64,000 bases of DNA, from IMG/VR virus record IMGVR_UViG_3300021256_000062, positions 64,001 through 128,000 of that record; one strand, written 5' to 3'. Source of the DNA: a virus. Its lineage: Duplodnaviria; Caudoviricetes. Position numbers and translations under genes: made by a program. This document shows, one piece after another, positions 33,766 through 41,699 of this stretch. The notes beneath the pieces were generated by a model. That model made no database searches and had not been told where the DNA came from. It saw only the letters and a program-made list of their open reading frames with translations. The first letter of the stretch is position 1. Each line of letters begins with the position of its first letter.

Positions 33766-33865
33766 AAGACAGTGTTCTTTGCTTGGGATTTGAACCCAAA
33801 ATTGATTTCTTGGAAGGAAATTGACTTACCGTTTGTCTAGCATTTAGAATTGCTGTAACTGTCTT
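33766..33865 (-). ncRNA. ACAGCAA-stem RNA copy 1, carrying a tRNA-Gly(TCC)-like D/anticodon/T core
   Basis: AAGACAG-TTACAGCAA-TTCT...ATTTC CTTCCAA GAAAT...TTGGG TTCAAAT CCCAA...AGAA-CA-CTGTCTT. Confidence 0.75.
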
Positions 33866-33875
33866 TAATTTTATT

Positions 33876-33949
33876 TGGCAGGGGCGGAGAGATTCGAACT
33901 CCCGTTGATGGTGTTGGAGACCATAGTCCTACCACTGAACGACACCCCT
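33876..33949 (-). tRNA. tRNA-Trp(CCA)
   Basis: Cloverleaf; loop CTCCAAC; encoded CCA. Confidence 0.92.
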
Positions 33950-33950
33950 A

Positions 33951-34330
33951 TGGTGGAGATGAGGGGAATTGAACCCCTGTATTGAAATCAGTCCATTTGA
34001 CTTTCTACATATTATCTTATTTATGTCCTCGTACAAATTACATCATCAGTAAATAAGCAAATTAGAAATGTAATTCAATTAGTTTCTATGGTCATTTCGA
34101 TTTCCTTTCGACTACTAATAAATGCAAAGTTCATCTACCCCTATATCGATTAACTACTAATTAGTATAGGTATCCTAATTTTCGTTTCCTAATTTATCTA
34201 ATTAGGCAAATGCATATGCTCTAGGAGCATTGTTTAAAGTTGCGGTTATTTAAACCTCGACGTTGATAACCCAGTCTACTGGATATGCTTATCATCTTTC
34301 ATAACTCCAAGCGAATCCATAAACATCCCC
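33951..34330 (-). ncRNA. ssrA: tmRNA, tag (A)TLNNAPRAYAFA*
   Basis: GGGGATG 5' end; T-arm and CATCTCCACCA 3' end; ATAACC-GCA resume site; tag ORF 34243-34202. Confidence 0.92.
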
Positions 34331-34343
34331 ATATTTAATTTAT

Positions 34344-34418
34344 TGGCGGGTCCTGAGAGATTCGAACTCCCCTATGGCAGCTTAACAGGCTGCTGCCCAA
34401 CCACTAGGCCAAGGACCC
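34344..34418 (-). tRNA. tRNA-Asn(GTT)
   Basis: Cloverleaf; loop CTGTTAA. Confidence 0.9.
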
Positions 34419-34835
34419 TTTTAATATATTATCAATTAAATAATCTTTTTCATACTTAATATTTGATTTTTGACCATTTTTTGGGTTATCATATCTAATA
34501 TTAAGTCCACTTGTAGGTGCATCATCAATACTGATTAATAAAATAACATCTCTTGTTACATTATAACAAGCGAAATAATCAATTTCAGTAGCATTATAAA
34601 TATGTCTAACACCTTTTGTACAATGAAGAGTTGATGATACTAAACTAAATTTCATAACTCCATTCTCAGCTTTAACTGATGTTTTAACTTGGATTTTATT
34701 TAATTTACCATTAAATTCTGCAATTAAGTCAGCCTTTTCATTATCACCGAAAGGTACATAAACAGGTATACCTAACTCCACAAATTTACATAATACTTTA
34801 GCCTCTCCAATATTCCCTATTGACTTACTATTCAT
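34404..34835 (-). CDS. free-standing PD-(D/E)XK homing-type endonuclease (I-Ssp6803I-like family)
   Basis: GNIGEAKV...PFGDNEKADLI...KIQVKTS...IDYFACY; start revised to MNSKS. Confidence 0.8.
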   Translation of the reverse strand: MNSKSIGNIGEAKVLCKFVELGIPVYVPFGDNEKADLIAEFNGKLNKIQVKTSVKAENGVMKFSLVSSTLHCTKGVRHIYNATEIDYFACYNVTRDVILLISIDDAPTSGLNIRYDNPKNGQKSNIKYEKDYLIDNILKGSLA

Positions 34836-34855
34836 AATGTTACTCCTAATTATAA

Positions 34856-34932
34856 TGGTTCCACCTAGCGGACTCGAACCGCTCATCTACCGCGTGAAAG
34901 GCGGGTGTCTTAACCAACTCGACTAAGGTGGA
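34856..34932 (-). tRNA. tRNA-Glu(TTC)
   Basis: Cloverleaf; loop CTTTCAC. Confidence 0.9.
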
Positions 34933-34970
34933 ATATACTGATTATCTTTTACAATAATCAAAAATATTAA

Positions 34971-35046
34971 TGGTGGACAGGCTTGGAATCGAACCAAGAT
35001 ATCTAGTTCTTCAGACTAGCGCACAGACCACATATGCCATCTGTCC
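34971..35046 (-). tRNA. tRNA-Phe(GAA)
   Basis: Cloverleaf; loop CTGAAGA. Confidence 0.88.
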
Positions 35047-35047
35047 A

Positions 35048-35124
35048 TGGTCTCCTAAATTGGATTTGAACCAATACTTTGTAAGGTTTGAGCTTACTAC
35101 CTCTTCCAATTGGGTTATTAGGAG
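35048..35124 (-). tRNA. tRNA-Leu(CAA), short variable loop
   Basis: GTAAG CTCAAAC CTTAC. Confidence 0.85.
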
Positions 35125-39219: not shown

Positions 39220-39295
39220 TGGTGCCGACTATAGGAATCGAACCCACAACCTACTGATTACAAGTCAGTTGCTCTACCAATTGAGCTAAGTCGGC
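39220..39295 (-). tRNA. tRNA-Thr(TGT)
   Basis: Cloverleaf; loop CTTGTAA. Confidence 0.93.
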
Positions 39296-39448
39296 ATTTT
39301 AAGTGTTGATTTTCCTAGGTTCAACACTAGCTTATAAGCTATCCCACCCATCGGAAGGAGATAAGTCACCACTTTATCTTTCTTTCATTTATCAGATGAA
39401 CGCTTTATATCTATTATAACTGTTCTATAGTAACAGATATAAACTATA

Positions 39449-39524
39449 TGGTGGAGCTAGTCGGGTTCGAACCGACGACTTTCAACTTGCAAAGCTGACA
39501 CTCTCCCAACTGAGTTATAGCCCC
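39449..39524 (-). tRNA. tRNA-Ala(TGC)
   Basis: GGGGCTA acceptor with G3:U70; loop TTTGCAA. Confidence 0.93.
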
Positions 39525-39611
39525 AAACATGTCCAAGCTTAAAGTACGAGGACAGAATCCTACTAGAAGATAACTTAATATATTATACAATAATTGTTTT
39601 TAATTTTATAC

Positions 39612-39675
39612 AAGACTCTATTTTGGGTATTATGATTAAAAGTCATAGCCTAAAATAAATTGCGGTATAAGTCTT
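39612..39675 (-). ncRNA. ACAGCAA-stem RNA copy 4, carrying a Lys(TTT) anticodon stem-loop only
   Basis: AAGACTT-ATACCGCAA-TTTATTTTAGGC-TATGA CTTTTAA TCATA-ATACCCAAAATA-GAGTCTT. Confidence 0.75.
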
Positions 39676-39709
39676 TTTAAATTGTTCTTTATATTATTTT
39701 AAATGATTC

Positions 39710-39815
39710 AAGACACTTCTTTTTGCGTATACCATTTCGCCACTTAGCACATGCTGCTGAGATAGGATTCGAACCTATAATAATCTAAAAGATTAAGGTT
39801 TGCTGTATGTGTCTT
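39710..39815 (-). ncRNA. ACAGCAA-stem RNA copy 5, circularly permuted tRNA-like (YrlA-like topology)
   Basis: AAGACAC-ATACAGCAA...T arm ATAGG TTCGAAT CCTAT, loop-closed acceptor CTCAGCA GCATG TGCTAAG, D arm GCG AAATGGTATA CGC...GTGTCTT. Confidence 0.78.
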
Positions 39816-39849
39816 TATATCAGTAAAATTATTTATTTTATAAGTAATC

Positions 39850-39989
39850 AAGACATTCTTGTTGATTTTAAGTGTGATACCATTACACCACTCCCCTATA
39901 TAATTAAATATATGGCAGGGGAGGAATGGATTCGAACCATCATCACTGGAGTTGCAGTCCCTATCATTTAGAATTGCAGTAAATGTCTT
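39850..39989 (-). ncRNA. ACAGCAA-stem RNA copy 6, circularly permuted tRNA-Cys(GCA)-like
   Basis: AAGACAT-TTACTGCAA...GGA CTGCAAC TCC, T arm, CTCCCCT-G-CCA, AT linker, AGGGGAG, D arm...ATGTCTT. Confidence 0.78.
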
Positions 39990-39998
39990 TATTTTATT

Positions 39999-41630
39999 TT
40001 ATAACCAAGAAGGTTTATCCATCTTTGATATAGTATTTCCAGACCACTTAATTCCAGCTTTAGTGACATTCTCTAAATATGGAATTGAATCATATGTCTT
40101 AACATCTAATTCCTTAACTAGTGCTAAGAATGGGTCAGTCTCACCATTTAACACCATATTTAAAGTATTAACTGAGAATCCTGATACTAATACAACACCA
40201 TTTTCATTTTGTGTTAATGGAATAGTGTTTGTTCTAGAACATACATTCCAGAATACTAATTTAGGTAATTTATATCCTGCACTAGCATATTTTGTTTGCG
40301 CATTTCTAAATACATTACTATCACTATTAAAATGATTATAACCATATGAAGAATCAAATTCCATATCTGAAATAATTAAAATTTGTTCAGGCATATCTTC
40401 AGGTTTAACCTTACCTTCAACAGCTGTCTTTAAGATTAAATTGAATACATTCTCAATATTAGTGTTTGAACAATCACTATAACAAAGACAAGTTTGTAAT
40501 TTAGAATGTAATGATTGACACATAGATAAATCTACTAATTTAGCTTGAGATGAGAAAGTAATAAACTTATCTTTAAATGTATCATTTAATCTTTCTGAAC
40601 AATAAATTGCCAATGCAGTTGATACATCTAATGCGGTTGTATTACCAGAACCTACTTTTGACGTCATTGAACCTGAACCATCTCTAACAACGATTGTGTT
40701 ATTTAAACCATCTTTTTGTTTTAGGTTCTTCCATAATTGTTCTAATGCTTCATCATAATCAGTTAAATGTGAATACCATCCATCACAATTAAAGTATTTA
40801 GTAACAATTTCGTGTGGGAAGTTAACTGAAGAATTAATCTTTACTTCCTTACCATCCTTATCTACACCTACTCTTAATGCAGCTAAGAAATCTCTACGTC
40901 TTTCTTCATCGTGTCTTAAGAAAGCATCCTTATACTTTAAGTTTGCTTTTGATGGAACTTGATTATAATCAATCTTACTCCATTCATTTGCAGATGTATA
41001 AGTTTCAATTACCTTTAAGTATGCTCTTAACTTTGATAAAAGTTGTCTATACTCTTTAGATGTTGCACCAAATGATTTGATGAAAATCTTTGCCAATTTC
41101 TTTGTTTTAGGAGATGATGCATTTTCAGATGGCATCCACTTAGCTAATAATGAAATTGGTTTGTTATTATTCATATTAGTGAAATCTTGTTTTAATTGAC
41201 TTAAAACAGTTTGTACCATAAAATCTTGATATTCAGTACCAATGAAAACAAATAAGTCATCATATCTACCAAATTCAACTATTTGAGTCTTAATTAAGTC
41301 TTTAACAATTTCATCTTTATTCTTGAAATCTGAAACCTTAATTAAATGATTTAAGGCTACTCTAAATAATCTTCTTTCACCTAATCCTTCTCTTACTCCT
41401 CTTACATAGAATAAGAATTTTAATAAGTATCTAGCATCACCTTGTTCAGCTAATACTAAATCAATATCCTTACAAATATCAGCATCTGTAAGTTTACGAT
41501 ATGAAGTTACCTTGAAATTCATATCTAGTAATGGGTGGAAAGTAGTCTTATATCCCTCCATACCATTTTCAGTAATTGATACATTGTTTTGTACCTTTTT
41601 CATAGTTCCATAAAAATCCATATTATCCAT
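39999..41630 (-). CDS. DUF2828 family protein (TROVE/Ro-like helical domain plus C-terminal vWA)
   Basis: RGVREGLGER, GRYDDL, SLLAKWMPSE, IDYNQVPS, MIDAS DGSGSM, ISDMEFD, PKLVFWNV, LVSGFS. Confidence 0.88.
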   Translation of the reverse strand: MDNMDFYGTMKKVQNNVSITENGMEGYKTTFHPLLDMNFKVTSYRKLTDADICKDIDLVLAEQGDARYLLKFLFYVRGVREGLGERRLFRVALNHLIKVSDFKNKDEIVKDLIKTQIVEFGRYDDLFVFIGTEYQDFMVQTVLSQLKQDFTNMNNNKPISLLAKWMPSENASSPKTKKLAKIFIKSFGATSKEYRQLLSKLRAYLKVIETYTSANEWSKIDYNQVPSKANLKYKDAFLRHDEERRRDFLAALRVGVDKDGKEVKINSSVNFPHEIVTKYFNCDGWYSHLTDYDEALEQLWKNLKQKDGLNNTIVVRDGSGSMTSKVGSGNTTALDVSTALAIYCSERLNDTFKDKFITFSSQAKLVDLSMCQSLHSKLQTCLCYSDCSNTNIENVFNLILKTAVEGKVKPEDMPEQILIISDMEFDSSYGYNHFNSDSNVFRNAQTKYASAGYKLPKLVFWNVCSRTNTIPLTQNENGVVLVSGFSVNTLNMVLNGETDPFLALVKELDVKTYDSIPYLENVTKAGIKWSGNTISKMDKPSWL

Positions 41631-41637
41631 CCTTTCT

Positions 41638-41699
41638 AGACACTACCATGTATATCCAACAACCATTAGACTTTACACTATTTGTTGCTGTATGTGTCT
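41638..41699 (-). ncRNA. ACAGCAA-stem RNA copy 7 in the DUF2828 5' leader
   Basis: AGACAC-ATACAGCAA...GTGTCT immediately followed by AGAAAGG-ATG. Confidence 0.72.

Follow-up and report, generated by a model that had tools for sequence, protein, structure and literature searches.

Ro60 Particles and Related Phage Systems

The Ro60 protein and its Y RNAs are conserved from bacteria to humans, and 254 bacteria and 22 phages have been found to carry TROVE-type Ro60 with YrlA RNA (PMC4201824). Here, a locus is described from a 64,000-nucleotide (nt) stretch of phage DNA, referred to as the window (bases 64001–128000 of IMG/VR record IMGVR_UViG_3300021256_000062, a 158.9-kb AT-rich phage genome that is about 94% complete), in which a gene of the DUF2828/DUF7788 family is accompanied by short RNA elements that share a terminal stem and a single-stranded motif, together called the handle, and enclose a variable cargo that often resembles transfer RNA (tRNA). 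Judging from sequence comparison and a structure model, the handle/DUF2828 system looks like an undescribed and widespread relative of the Ro/Y-RNA particle, without an Rfam family of its own. It would be a second and much more widespread family of the same fold, provided with its own RNA partners.

Like the bacterial and phage Ro60 (Rsr) with its YrlA and YrlB RNAs (PMC4201824; RF02553), the protein of this locus is predicted to combine a HEAT-like-repeat ring with a vWA domain, and small RNAs closed by a terminal stem are encoded next to its gene on the same strand, in bacteria as well as in phages. Moreover, one class of these RNAs shares with YrlA (PMC4201824) a tRNA-like domain, variable arm, T arm, acceptor stem, and D arm. 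However, the handle-linked protein belongs to a different sequence family, with about 12% identity to Ro60, and the basal stem is not the Rsr-binding stem of YrlA but consists of 7 bp, ACNGCAA, and a G. Unlike in the Ro60/Yrl systems, there are many copies per genome, and among the modular cargoes are whole tRNAs, anticodon arms standing alone, and hairpins that are not of tRNA type.

Among phage-encoded systems, the Ro60 of Thermus phage phiLo has been solved with its Yrl1 and Yrl2 RNAs (PMC12135203; PDB 9KOP, 9L5Y). It resembles the present system as a phage-encoded ring with two adjacent upstream small RNAs and a proposed recruitment of PNPase for counter-defence, and differs in being a canonical TROVE protein, whose RNAs are chosen by a CGAA bulge and for which no panel of tRNA parts is described. 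In the Felixounavirus Bas63, the gene of the Ro60-like protein gp130 lies upstream of tRNA genes, and the phage needs this protein to withstand the Ppl defence; the authors of that work guess that some of the Bas63 'tRNAs' are Y RNAs (PhageMaP preprint, 10.1101/2024.10.10.617714). They identify no RNA partner and describe neither the handle nor its covariation or spread. Synteny indicates that gp130 is probably the orthologue of ORF42 of Salmonella phage FelixO1, a member of the same genus; ORF42 encodes a DUF2828 homologue and is closely followed by four handle RNAs. A 'Ro-like' protein of cluster L1 mycobacteriophages is toxic when overexpressed (PMC13148394). Finally, the tRNA-Lys of phage T5 that counters PARIS (PMC11464382) offers a parallel in tRNA-derived RNAs of phage arrays answering an attack of the host on tRNA, as may be the case here, and Lys-UUU is prominent in both. 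T5-type tRNAs are, in contrast, functional replacement tRNAs that act in translation without a dedicated protein, whereas the handle cargoes are coupled to a Ro60-like protein, and most of them are unfit for aminoacylation. No description of an RNA partner of DUF2828, or of the handle itself, was found in the literature searched, and no Rfam family matches the handle.

The Handle Elements of the Window

All features of the region of interest, some small open reading frames among them, lie on the minus strand. On this strand, the elements follow a constant order, namely a 7-nt strand, two variable bases, ACNGCAA, a cargo of 31–117 nt, the complementary 7-nt strand, and a G. The exact pattern AAGACNNWWACNGCAA has six matches in the window, all on the minus strand, and no exact match elsewhere in the 158.9-kb genome. 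When up to two mismatches are allowed, 16 matches are found in the window, a total reached by none of 100 shuffled sequences, and a seventh copy, TAGATAC TA ACAGCAA (35363→35295), is one of these two-mismatch matches. A covariance model, R1, was trained on 111 short, non-redundant elements found in other genomes, to the exclusion of the window. Run unfiltered over the 64 kb, R1 places seven elements on top (41.1–25.4 bits, E 4.6e-7 to 2.1e-3), followed by a match at E 0.1, and its matches in the whole genome are confined to this region. An earlier reading of the window by a model that saw only the sequence (hereafter the sequence-only reading) had proposed precisely these seven elements as a family with a covarying closing stem and an unpaired ACNGCAA. 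All seven are real, and a model trained on other genomes recovers them. The family is probably larger by one, and the definition of the motif has to be extended by the conserved trailing G, which is present on every copy of the window.

Four of the eight elements, E1, E2, E8, and E3, are embedded in or adjoin a tRNA array (33876..39524). E1 (33765..33865; R1 36.3 bits, E 6e-6) pairs AAGACAG with CTGTCTT around TT ACAGCAA, and E2 (35294..35363), the best match of the window (41.1 bits, E 4.6e-7), pairs TAGATAC with GTATCTA around TA ACAGCAA. E8 (35428..35553) is the probable additional element, which the list of seven lacks: with AAGTCAC GA ACTGCAA ... GTGACTT G it shows the full anatomy and 7/7 pairing, and R1 matches it at 35554–35427 (17.5 bits, E 0.15). 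E3 (39102..39219; 25.4 bits, E 2e-3) is closed by AAGACTC/GAGTCTT, with AT ACTGCAA.

The other four elements flank the protein gene. Ahead of it lies the leader copy E7 (41636..41700; 30.2 bits, E 1.6e-4), in which AAGACAC and GUGUCUA form 6 bp and an A.A mismatch next to AT ACAGCAA. After it lie E6 (39849..39989; AAGACAU/AUGUCUU, TT ACTGCAA; 25.5 bits, E 2e-3), E5 (39709..39815; AAGACAC/GTGTCTT, AT ACAGCAA; 39.8 bits, E 1e-6), and E4 (39611..39675; AAGACTT/GAGTCTT with one G.U pair, AT ACCGCAA; 36.6 bits, E 5e-6). The proposed arrangement of one copy before and three directly after the DUF2828 gene is thus borne out, with E6 beginning 10 nt past the stop codon. The end of E7 is separated by 14 nt from the likely start codon, and the Shine–Dalgarno sequence AAAGGA follows directly after its trailing G. 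As the listed stems had indicated, pairing is kept as the sequence changes from copy to copy. Rfam places no family on the elements at permissive thresholds, save tRNA on E1 and E3.

A Ro60-Shaped Protein of a Different Sequence Family

The protein gene (39999..41630, minus strand) is an open reading frame (ORF) of 543 amino acids (aa) when counted from its first ATG. Translation probably begins at the second ATG, at 41621 (540 aa, MDFYG...), where an identical database protein starts too. Pfam assigns PF25043 (DUF7788; 2.6e-43, 148.3 bits against a cut-off of 27.1) and PF11443 (DUF2828; 1.1e-25, 90.8 bits against a cut-off of 29), and phrog_850, annotated as 'RNA-binding protein', matches at 7e-113. 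The same Pfam scan gives only a weak VWA_2 in addition and no match to TROVE (PF05731), and a phmmer search of the PDB sequences finds no Ro60, its sole match being a chance one to S21.

An AlphaFold2 model computed from 37 homologues (pLDDT 84, pTM 0.85) has Ro60 as each of its first 13 Foldseek matches in the PDB, over the full length and with E 4e-8. VIA-align superimposes it on Xenopus Ro60 over 414 residues with Z 21.8 and a root-mean-square deviation of 3.8 Å, and fills its ranks 1–10 with Ro60 structures (frog, human, Deinococcus, and Thermus phage phiLo, the latter at Z 15), vWA-only structures coming next at Z of about 11. Moreover, D317, S319, S321, T390, and D422 are invariant in the 37 homologues, and by our reading of the motif they would form the metal-ion-dependent adhesion site of the vWA domain (DxSxS ... 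T ... D). Since the fold matches Ro60 over its full length while TROVE and Ro60 sequence searches fail, the protein is, as modelled, Ro60-shaped, with a helical-repeat ring and a vWA domain, and a member of a separate sequence family. The structural kinship of DUF2828 to Ro60 that the sequence-only reading had suspected is therefore seen along the entire chain.

Linkage of the Handle to the DUF2828 Gene Across Genomes

The linkage was followed on 80 viral contigs with homologues 45–74% identical, which were found by means of a homologue alignment (a single-protein search gave none), and elements were counted by a strict definition, i.e., the motif and a perfect 7-bp partner within 170 nt. By this definition, the 80 viral loci contain 202 elements on the strand of the gene versus 22 on the opposite strand, and 99 of the former are no more than 500 nt away from the gene, 71 of them upstream and 28 downstream. 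The pattern reveals the handle in 66 of the 80 loci and the model in 11 of the 14 remaining ones, so that 77 of 80 are positive. Pairing far exceeds chance: a perfect 7-bp partner accompanies 134 of 249 distinct same-strand motifs within 2 kb of the gene, compared with 15, 31, and 21 of 249 for reversed, shifted, and shuffled control 7-mers, respectively, and with only one of 21 opposite-strand motifs near the gene. Among the 134 paired elements, the stem takes 56 different sequences, and in 125 elements the 3' strand is followed by G. Double changes occur at all seven stem pairs across the 111 non-redundant elements; these rows were chosen for perfect pairing and hence speak for the variety of pairs only, the unbiased test being the 134 of 249.

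The linkage also holds when the search starts from the motif. One exact 16-mer occurs 83 times in IMG/VR, in 61 cases with the expected partner, and 24 of these 61 have a DUF2828 gene on the same strand within the short piece of sequence fetched. In the remaining records, the gene is present elsewhere in 25 of 34, and in 10 of the 11 that are at least 90% complete. For comparison, the base rate of the DUF2828 gene in isolate phages is 701 of 50,697 (about 1.4%), and the carriers include FelixO1 as well as Listeria, Staphylococcus, Enterococcus, and mycobacterial phages; gut bacteria carry the family too.

In individual phages, handle copies lie on the strand of the gene and beside it, with four copies in FelixO1 (AGACCAA/TTGGTCT), two in Enterococcus phage EFDG1, up to five by model in Bacillus phage Tsamsa, three in the GC-rich Mycobacterium phage Crossroads (TGGACGC/GCGTCCA), three in Staphylococcus phage 6ec, all after the gene, three just upstream of the gene in Listeria phage LP-125, and two in Campylobacter phage NCTC12673. 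In 80 loci from bacterial genomes, 99 of 102 model matches are on the strand of the gene, nearly all within 700 nt upstream. The co-occurrence predicted by the sequence-only reading is consequently found in both directions of testing, specific for the strand and short in range, in phages of unrelated hosts and in bacteria.

Among 160 related loci, no further protein is found to co-occur with the DUF2828 gene. The neighbouring AAA ATPase (35839–37062), PD-(D/E)XK nuclease, phosphoesterase, and polyvalent protein were considered as parts of the system and rejected, each being found in at most 3 of the 160 loci; the AAA+ ATPase (phrog_2376), considered as a MoxR-type partner of the vWA protein, is present in only two. 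Since the handle tracks the gene and no other protein does, the conserved unit, as far as comparison of genomes can define it, is the Ro60-like protein together with the handle RNAs.

Cargo of the Elements

The cargo differs from element to element, largely as it had been described from the sequence (a Gly tRNA core, a Phe arm, an Arg tRNA, a Lys arm, two permuted tRNAs, and no tRNA part in the leader copy). E3 encloses a complete tRNA-Arg(UCU) (39118–39190), called by ARAGORN and by the Rfam tRNA model (68.5 bits), which is the second copy of this isoacceptor. The cargo of E1 resembles the body of a tRNA-Gly(UCC), its acceptor stem being weak (33775–33846, 41.5 bits), and is not called by ARAGORN. 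Only these two cargoes reach the gathering score of the Rfam tRNA family (RF00005, 29 bits), and the other six remain below it. Two cargoes are reduced to an anticodon arm: E2 is a single hairpin with the loop CUGAAAA, a look-alike of Phe GAA, and the hairpin AUGA-CUUUUAA-UCAU of E4 is, by eye, a near-copy of the anticodon arm in the tRNA-Lys(UUU) that the phage itself encodes (35604–35679). No tRNA part was recognised in E7, and the 102-nt cargo of E8 includes a AUAUGCAGGAUGUAU hairpin, similar to one in a related locus (L046).

In the longer cargoes, the modules of YrlA (variable arm, T arm, acceptor-like stem-loop, D arm) recur in the same order, which can be read directly in E6 and less cleanly in E5. 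E6 consists of a hairpin (loop CUGCAAC), a T arm (GAUGG-UUCGAAU-CCAUU), a 7-bp acceptor stem that is followed by GCCA and closed by a loop, and a D arm with GG; E5 shows a hairpin, a T arm (UAGG-UUCGAAU-CCUA), an acceptor-like stem-loop, and a D arm. All circular re-permutations of both were run through ARAGORN, and no tRNA was called. A tRNA-model match of 20.4 bits that links the 5' half of E6 to the 3' half of E5 was rejected, because the acceptor strands of E6 pair with each other at 7/7 positions, whereas the cross pairing is mismatched. The comparison with YrlA raised by the sequence-only reading thus yields a shared module order in elements that the YrlA family itself does not claim: its model (RF02553, gathering score 69 bits) has no match on them, even with E up to 5 over the region and up to 10 on E5 and E6. 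In the relative EFDG1, the model gives sub-threshold scores of 34–45 bits with cmscan, where the tRNA-like core aligns and the basal stems are unmatched. FelixO1, EFDG1, Tsamsa, and Crossroads have one long element each with cargo in YrlA order.

Among 265 short elements, an anticodon-arm-like hairpin is found in 88, versus 16 ± 3 in shuffled sequences (T-loops excluded), and the commonest anticodon loops are UUU (Lys, 29), GUU (Asn, 10), UGA (Ser, 10), and UGG (Pro, 7); these counts, like the element counts overall, include related genomes and are not phylogenetically independent.

Upstream of the DUF2828 gene in Falcatimonas sp. MSJ-15 (locus L217, about 5800–5960), an RNA resembling a tRNA, its parts in the natural order (acceptor, D arm ... 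T arm, acceptor), was found by eye and not through a match to R1. Its anticodon arm is swapped for a hairpin-closed handle, GAATCTT-G-TAT-AAGGTTC followed by TTACAGCAC. This handle is a circular permutation of the phage form, which suggests that it takes the place of an extended anticodon stem.

Proposed Particle and Alternative Explanations

We propose that each of the eight elements encodes a small non-coding RNA and that these RNAs assemble with the neighbouring Ro60-like ring into ribonucleoprotein particles. The handle would act as the docking site, with a 7-bp terminal helix free in sequence, a single-stranded ACNGCAA on its 5' strand, and a G after its 3' strand, analogous to the basal stem, conserved in Y RNAs, to which Ro60 binds. 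The cargo would project from the ring as a tRNA look-alike, be it a whole tRNA, a body in YrlA order, or a bare anticodon arm, and the particle would engage enzymes that recognise tRNA. That such enzymes are its target is indicated by the combination of one constant handle with exchangeable tRNA parts. Taken as a whole, this reading is on balance the one we favour, and the Ro/Y-RNA-like interpretation given to the locus beforehand is supported within the reach of sequence analysis. Its parts differ in strength. Physical binding of the handle RNAs by the protein is very likely, because the linkage is two-way, strand-specific, and cross-phylum, and the modelled fold is that of Ro60. The existence of the elements as discrete RNAs, predicted from their sequence, is likely. 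Contigs from RNA libraries of two ruminant-gut metatranscriptomes, some identical to the window, cover E1, E3, E4, E5, E7, and the gene at low depth, and one with 0 differences spans E5; as to the habitat of the phage, they are no more than a weak hint.

As to the role of the particle, a competitive decoy or tether for tRNA-directed defence nucleases, which would shield translation during infection, is the likeliest candidate, because of the anticodon-arm cargo, the Lys-UUU bias, the setting of the genes in or beside phage tRNA arrays, and the Bas63 phenotype; such a decoy or counter-defence function is nonetheless advanced tentatively, at clearly less than even probability. If it is correct, protein-scaffolded RNA mimics join the known means by which phages protect translation. 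Going further, the universal handle might let the ring show any piece of a tRNA and hence constitute a customisable panel of decoys against tRNA-cutting nucleases and toxins in phages and some bacteria, a rather speculative extension that, if true, would amount to a modular type of counter-defence built on RNA, for which there is no description so far. The handle RNAs might possibly account for the ability of Bas63 gp130 to defeat Ppl. They would explain 'pseudo-tRNAs' and unannotated gaps in phage tRNA arrays and supply annotators with a new RNA family, and, owing to the modular design of the RNAs, the question can be tested in easily handled phage–host pairs.

Several observations weigh against this proposal or narrow it. 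The missing TROVE match and a handle unlike the Rsr-binding stem of YrlA confine the analogy with Ro/Y RNAs to the level of fold and topology. About two thirds of the 265 short cargoes have no recognisable likeness to tRNA. Coverage in the RNA libraries is low (depth 2–11) and consists of contigs only, for which DNA carry-over is possible; they define no RNA ends and leave transcription unproven. A purely anti-defence function is at odds with the chromosomes of Veillonella atypica, Breznakiella, and Ruminococcus, in which the pair lies among housekeeping genes and has anticodon-arm cargo too, and with a ligase gene near the homologue of a Listeria phage, discussed below, which points to repair. 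To our knowledge, Ppl is not a tRNA-cutting system. Lastly, the locus of the DUF2828 homologue in Vibrio phage KVP40 has no R1 match at E 0.1.

In that KVP40 locus (L284), two (C)GACATT NN ACAGCAA sites are seen at 340 and 3710, one directly after a tRNA-Ser and the other 27 nt ahead of the annotated start of the homologue; they may represent a divergent handle, or the start codon may be mis-set.

Of the alternatives, the one that survives best accepts the particle and assigns it to RNA repair or quality control, where the ring would be linked through its tRNA-like cargo to a ligase (RtcB, Rnl) or an exonuclease (PNPase), so that damaged or misfolded tRNAs are mended or removed. The tethering of Rsr to PNPase by Y RNA provides the model, to which the Ro60 fold and the YrlA-like order of the cargo conform, and the Ro60 of a Thermus phage with Yrl RNAs binds the PNPase of the host (PMC12135203). 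In Listeria phage LP-125 (locus L285, 6534–7745), an RtcB-like tRNA-splicing ligase and a DUF1768 protein are encoded 1.3–3 kb downstream of DUF2828 on the same strand, RtcB being at 1.3 kb, and the phage of the window encodes an RNA ligase (PF09414, 7e-22; 144799–145344, minus strand) and an enzyme of the CCA-adding/poly(A) polymerase family (PF01743, 4e-43; 10434–10799, minus strand), both outside the window. The copies on bacterial chromosomes would also suit a housekeeping role, as in Veillonella atypica, Breznakiella, Ruminococcus flavefaciens, and Falcatimonas, whose gene and handle stand among ordinary chromosomal genes (PolA, phosphate transporter, DEAD helicase). However, no repair gene is linked to the system in the window or across the 160 related loci, RtcB was not found in this phage genome, an anticodon arm by itself is a poor imitation for an enzyme that senses the entire shape of a tRNA, and the sole genetic result is a counter-defence phenotype. 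The precedent of Ro60, the RtcB gene near the Listeria phage homologue, and the bacterial copies thus make a tether to RNA repair or decay a possible role, and repair or quality control a possible explanation of the locus, each of them doubtful and a little less probable than the decoy.

A different explanation treats the handle mainly as a cis-acting operator, by which the protein, bound to the leader copy, represses its own translation, the other copies being titrating sites or by-products of duplication. The position of E7, which ends at the Shine–Dalgarno sequence, is suggestive in this respect, and about 55 of 114 related loci have their nearest upstream element ending no more than 60 nt away from the start codon, often right at the ribosome-binding site. 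Nevertheless, most genomes have multiple copies, of which many follow the gene or lie in tRNA arrays at a distance of kilobases, and in phage 6ec all three copies come after the gene. Autoregulation is therefore insufficient, because it leaves the downstream and distant copies unexplained. Moreover, an operator has no need of tRNA look-alike cargoes, which are well above the shuffled expectation. As a full account, the operator is improbable; within the particle proposed here, the leader copy at the ribosome-binding site may still let the protein restrain its own synthesis.

It is even less probable that the handles are signals for the processing or stability of tRNA operons, acting through host RNases or as end clamps, with the proximity of DUF2828 reflecting the habit of this gene of residing in tRNA arrays. 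E1 and E3 do wrap tRNA bodies, with a stem that pairs leader and trailer, and four copies are within or next to the array. Yet the other 26 tRNAs of the array lack a handle, the motif is found beside the gene without an adjoining tRNA array in Crossroads, 6ec, and bacterial chromosomes, and it is kept from phages of Actinobacteria to those of Proteobacteria, whose hosts have differing RNases. Lastly, inverted 7-mers that bracket variable inserts, and endonuclease genes scattered in such arrays (PD-(D/E)XK here, HNH in relatives), might recall DNA-level repeats with terminal inverted repeats, be they miniature mobile elements or homing-endonuclease targets, a reading that is extremely improbable, as the 7-mers differ between copies of one genome and yet remain complementary, G.U included, which fits RNA and not DNA repeats, ACNGCAA keeps to one of the two DNA strands (202 versus 22), target duplications are absent, and the endonuclease genes show no co-occurrence with the DUF2828 gene.

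Genomic Setting of the Locus

The phage has no close relative among the 50,697 isolate phage records. Its tRNA array (33876..39524, minus strand) comprises 27 tRNA genes and one transfer-messenger RNA (tmRNA) gene, as identified with ARAGORN and Rfam; the tmRNA gene (33951–34330, minus strand; Rfam 70.2 bits) encodes the tag peptide ATLNNAPRAYAFA. A tmRNA is likewise found in the tRNA array of EFDG1 (locus L201, 2110–2460), which also has the DUF2828 gene. A sigma-70 consensus promoter (TTGACA-17-TATAAT with an upstream TG; 41720..41748, minus strand) lies about 20 nt upstream of E7, its 12/12 match denoting agreement with the consensus and not use. It is likely, from its position, that a transcription unit of E7, the protein gene, and E6, E5, and E4 would start here. 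Three such perfect 12/12 promoters are present, all on the coding strand (41748–41720, 38508–38480, and 35800–35772), and they divide the region into units that begin before E7 and the protein gene, tRNA-Ser(GCU), and tRNA-Arg(UCU), respectively.

Five gaps of 90–200 nt between tRNA genes (37250–37390, 37565–37750, 37830–38035, 39296–39448, and 39525–39610, minus strand) contain no ORF, tRNA, or handle and may hold other small RNAs or degraded tRNAs. The AAA+ ATPase mentioned above (35839–37062, minus strand) is encoded inside the array between E8 and the next tRNAs. Outside the array, a 979-aa protein with a nucleotidyltransferase domain and an ART-PolyVal ADP-ribosyltransferase domain (43703–46642, minus strand) and an ORF of 1717 aa (26927–32080, minus strand) are both typical of the large 'polyvalent' proteins of phages. 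The PD-(D/E)XK endonuclease ORF (34404–34886, minus strand; PF11645, 4.8e-29) occupies the gap between tRNA-Asn and tRNA-Glu, overlapping each by a few bases, a placement that resembles that of the HNH genes dispersed through the arrays of FelixO1 and EFDG1.

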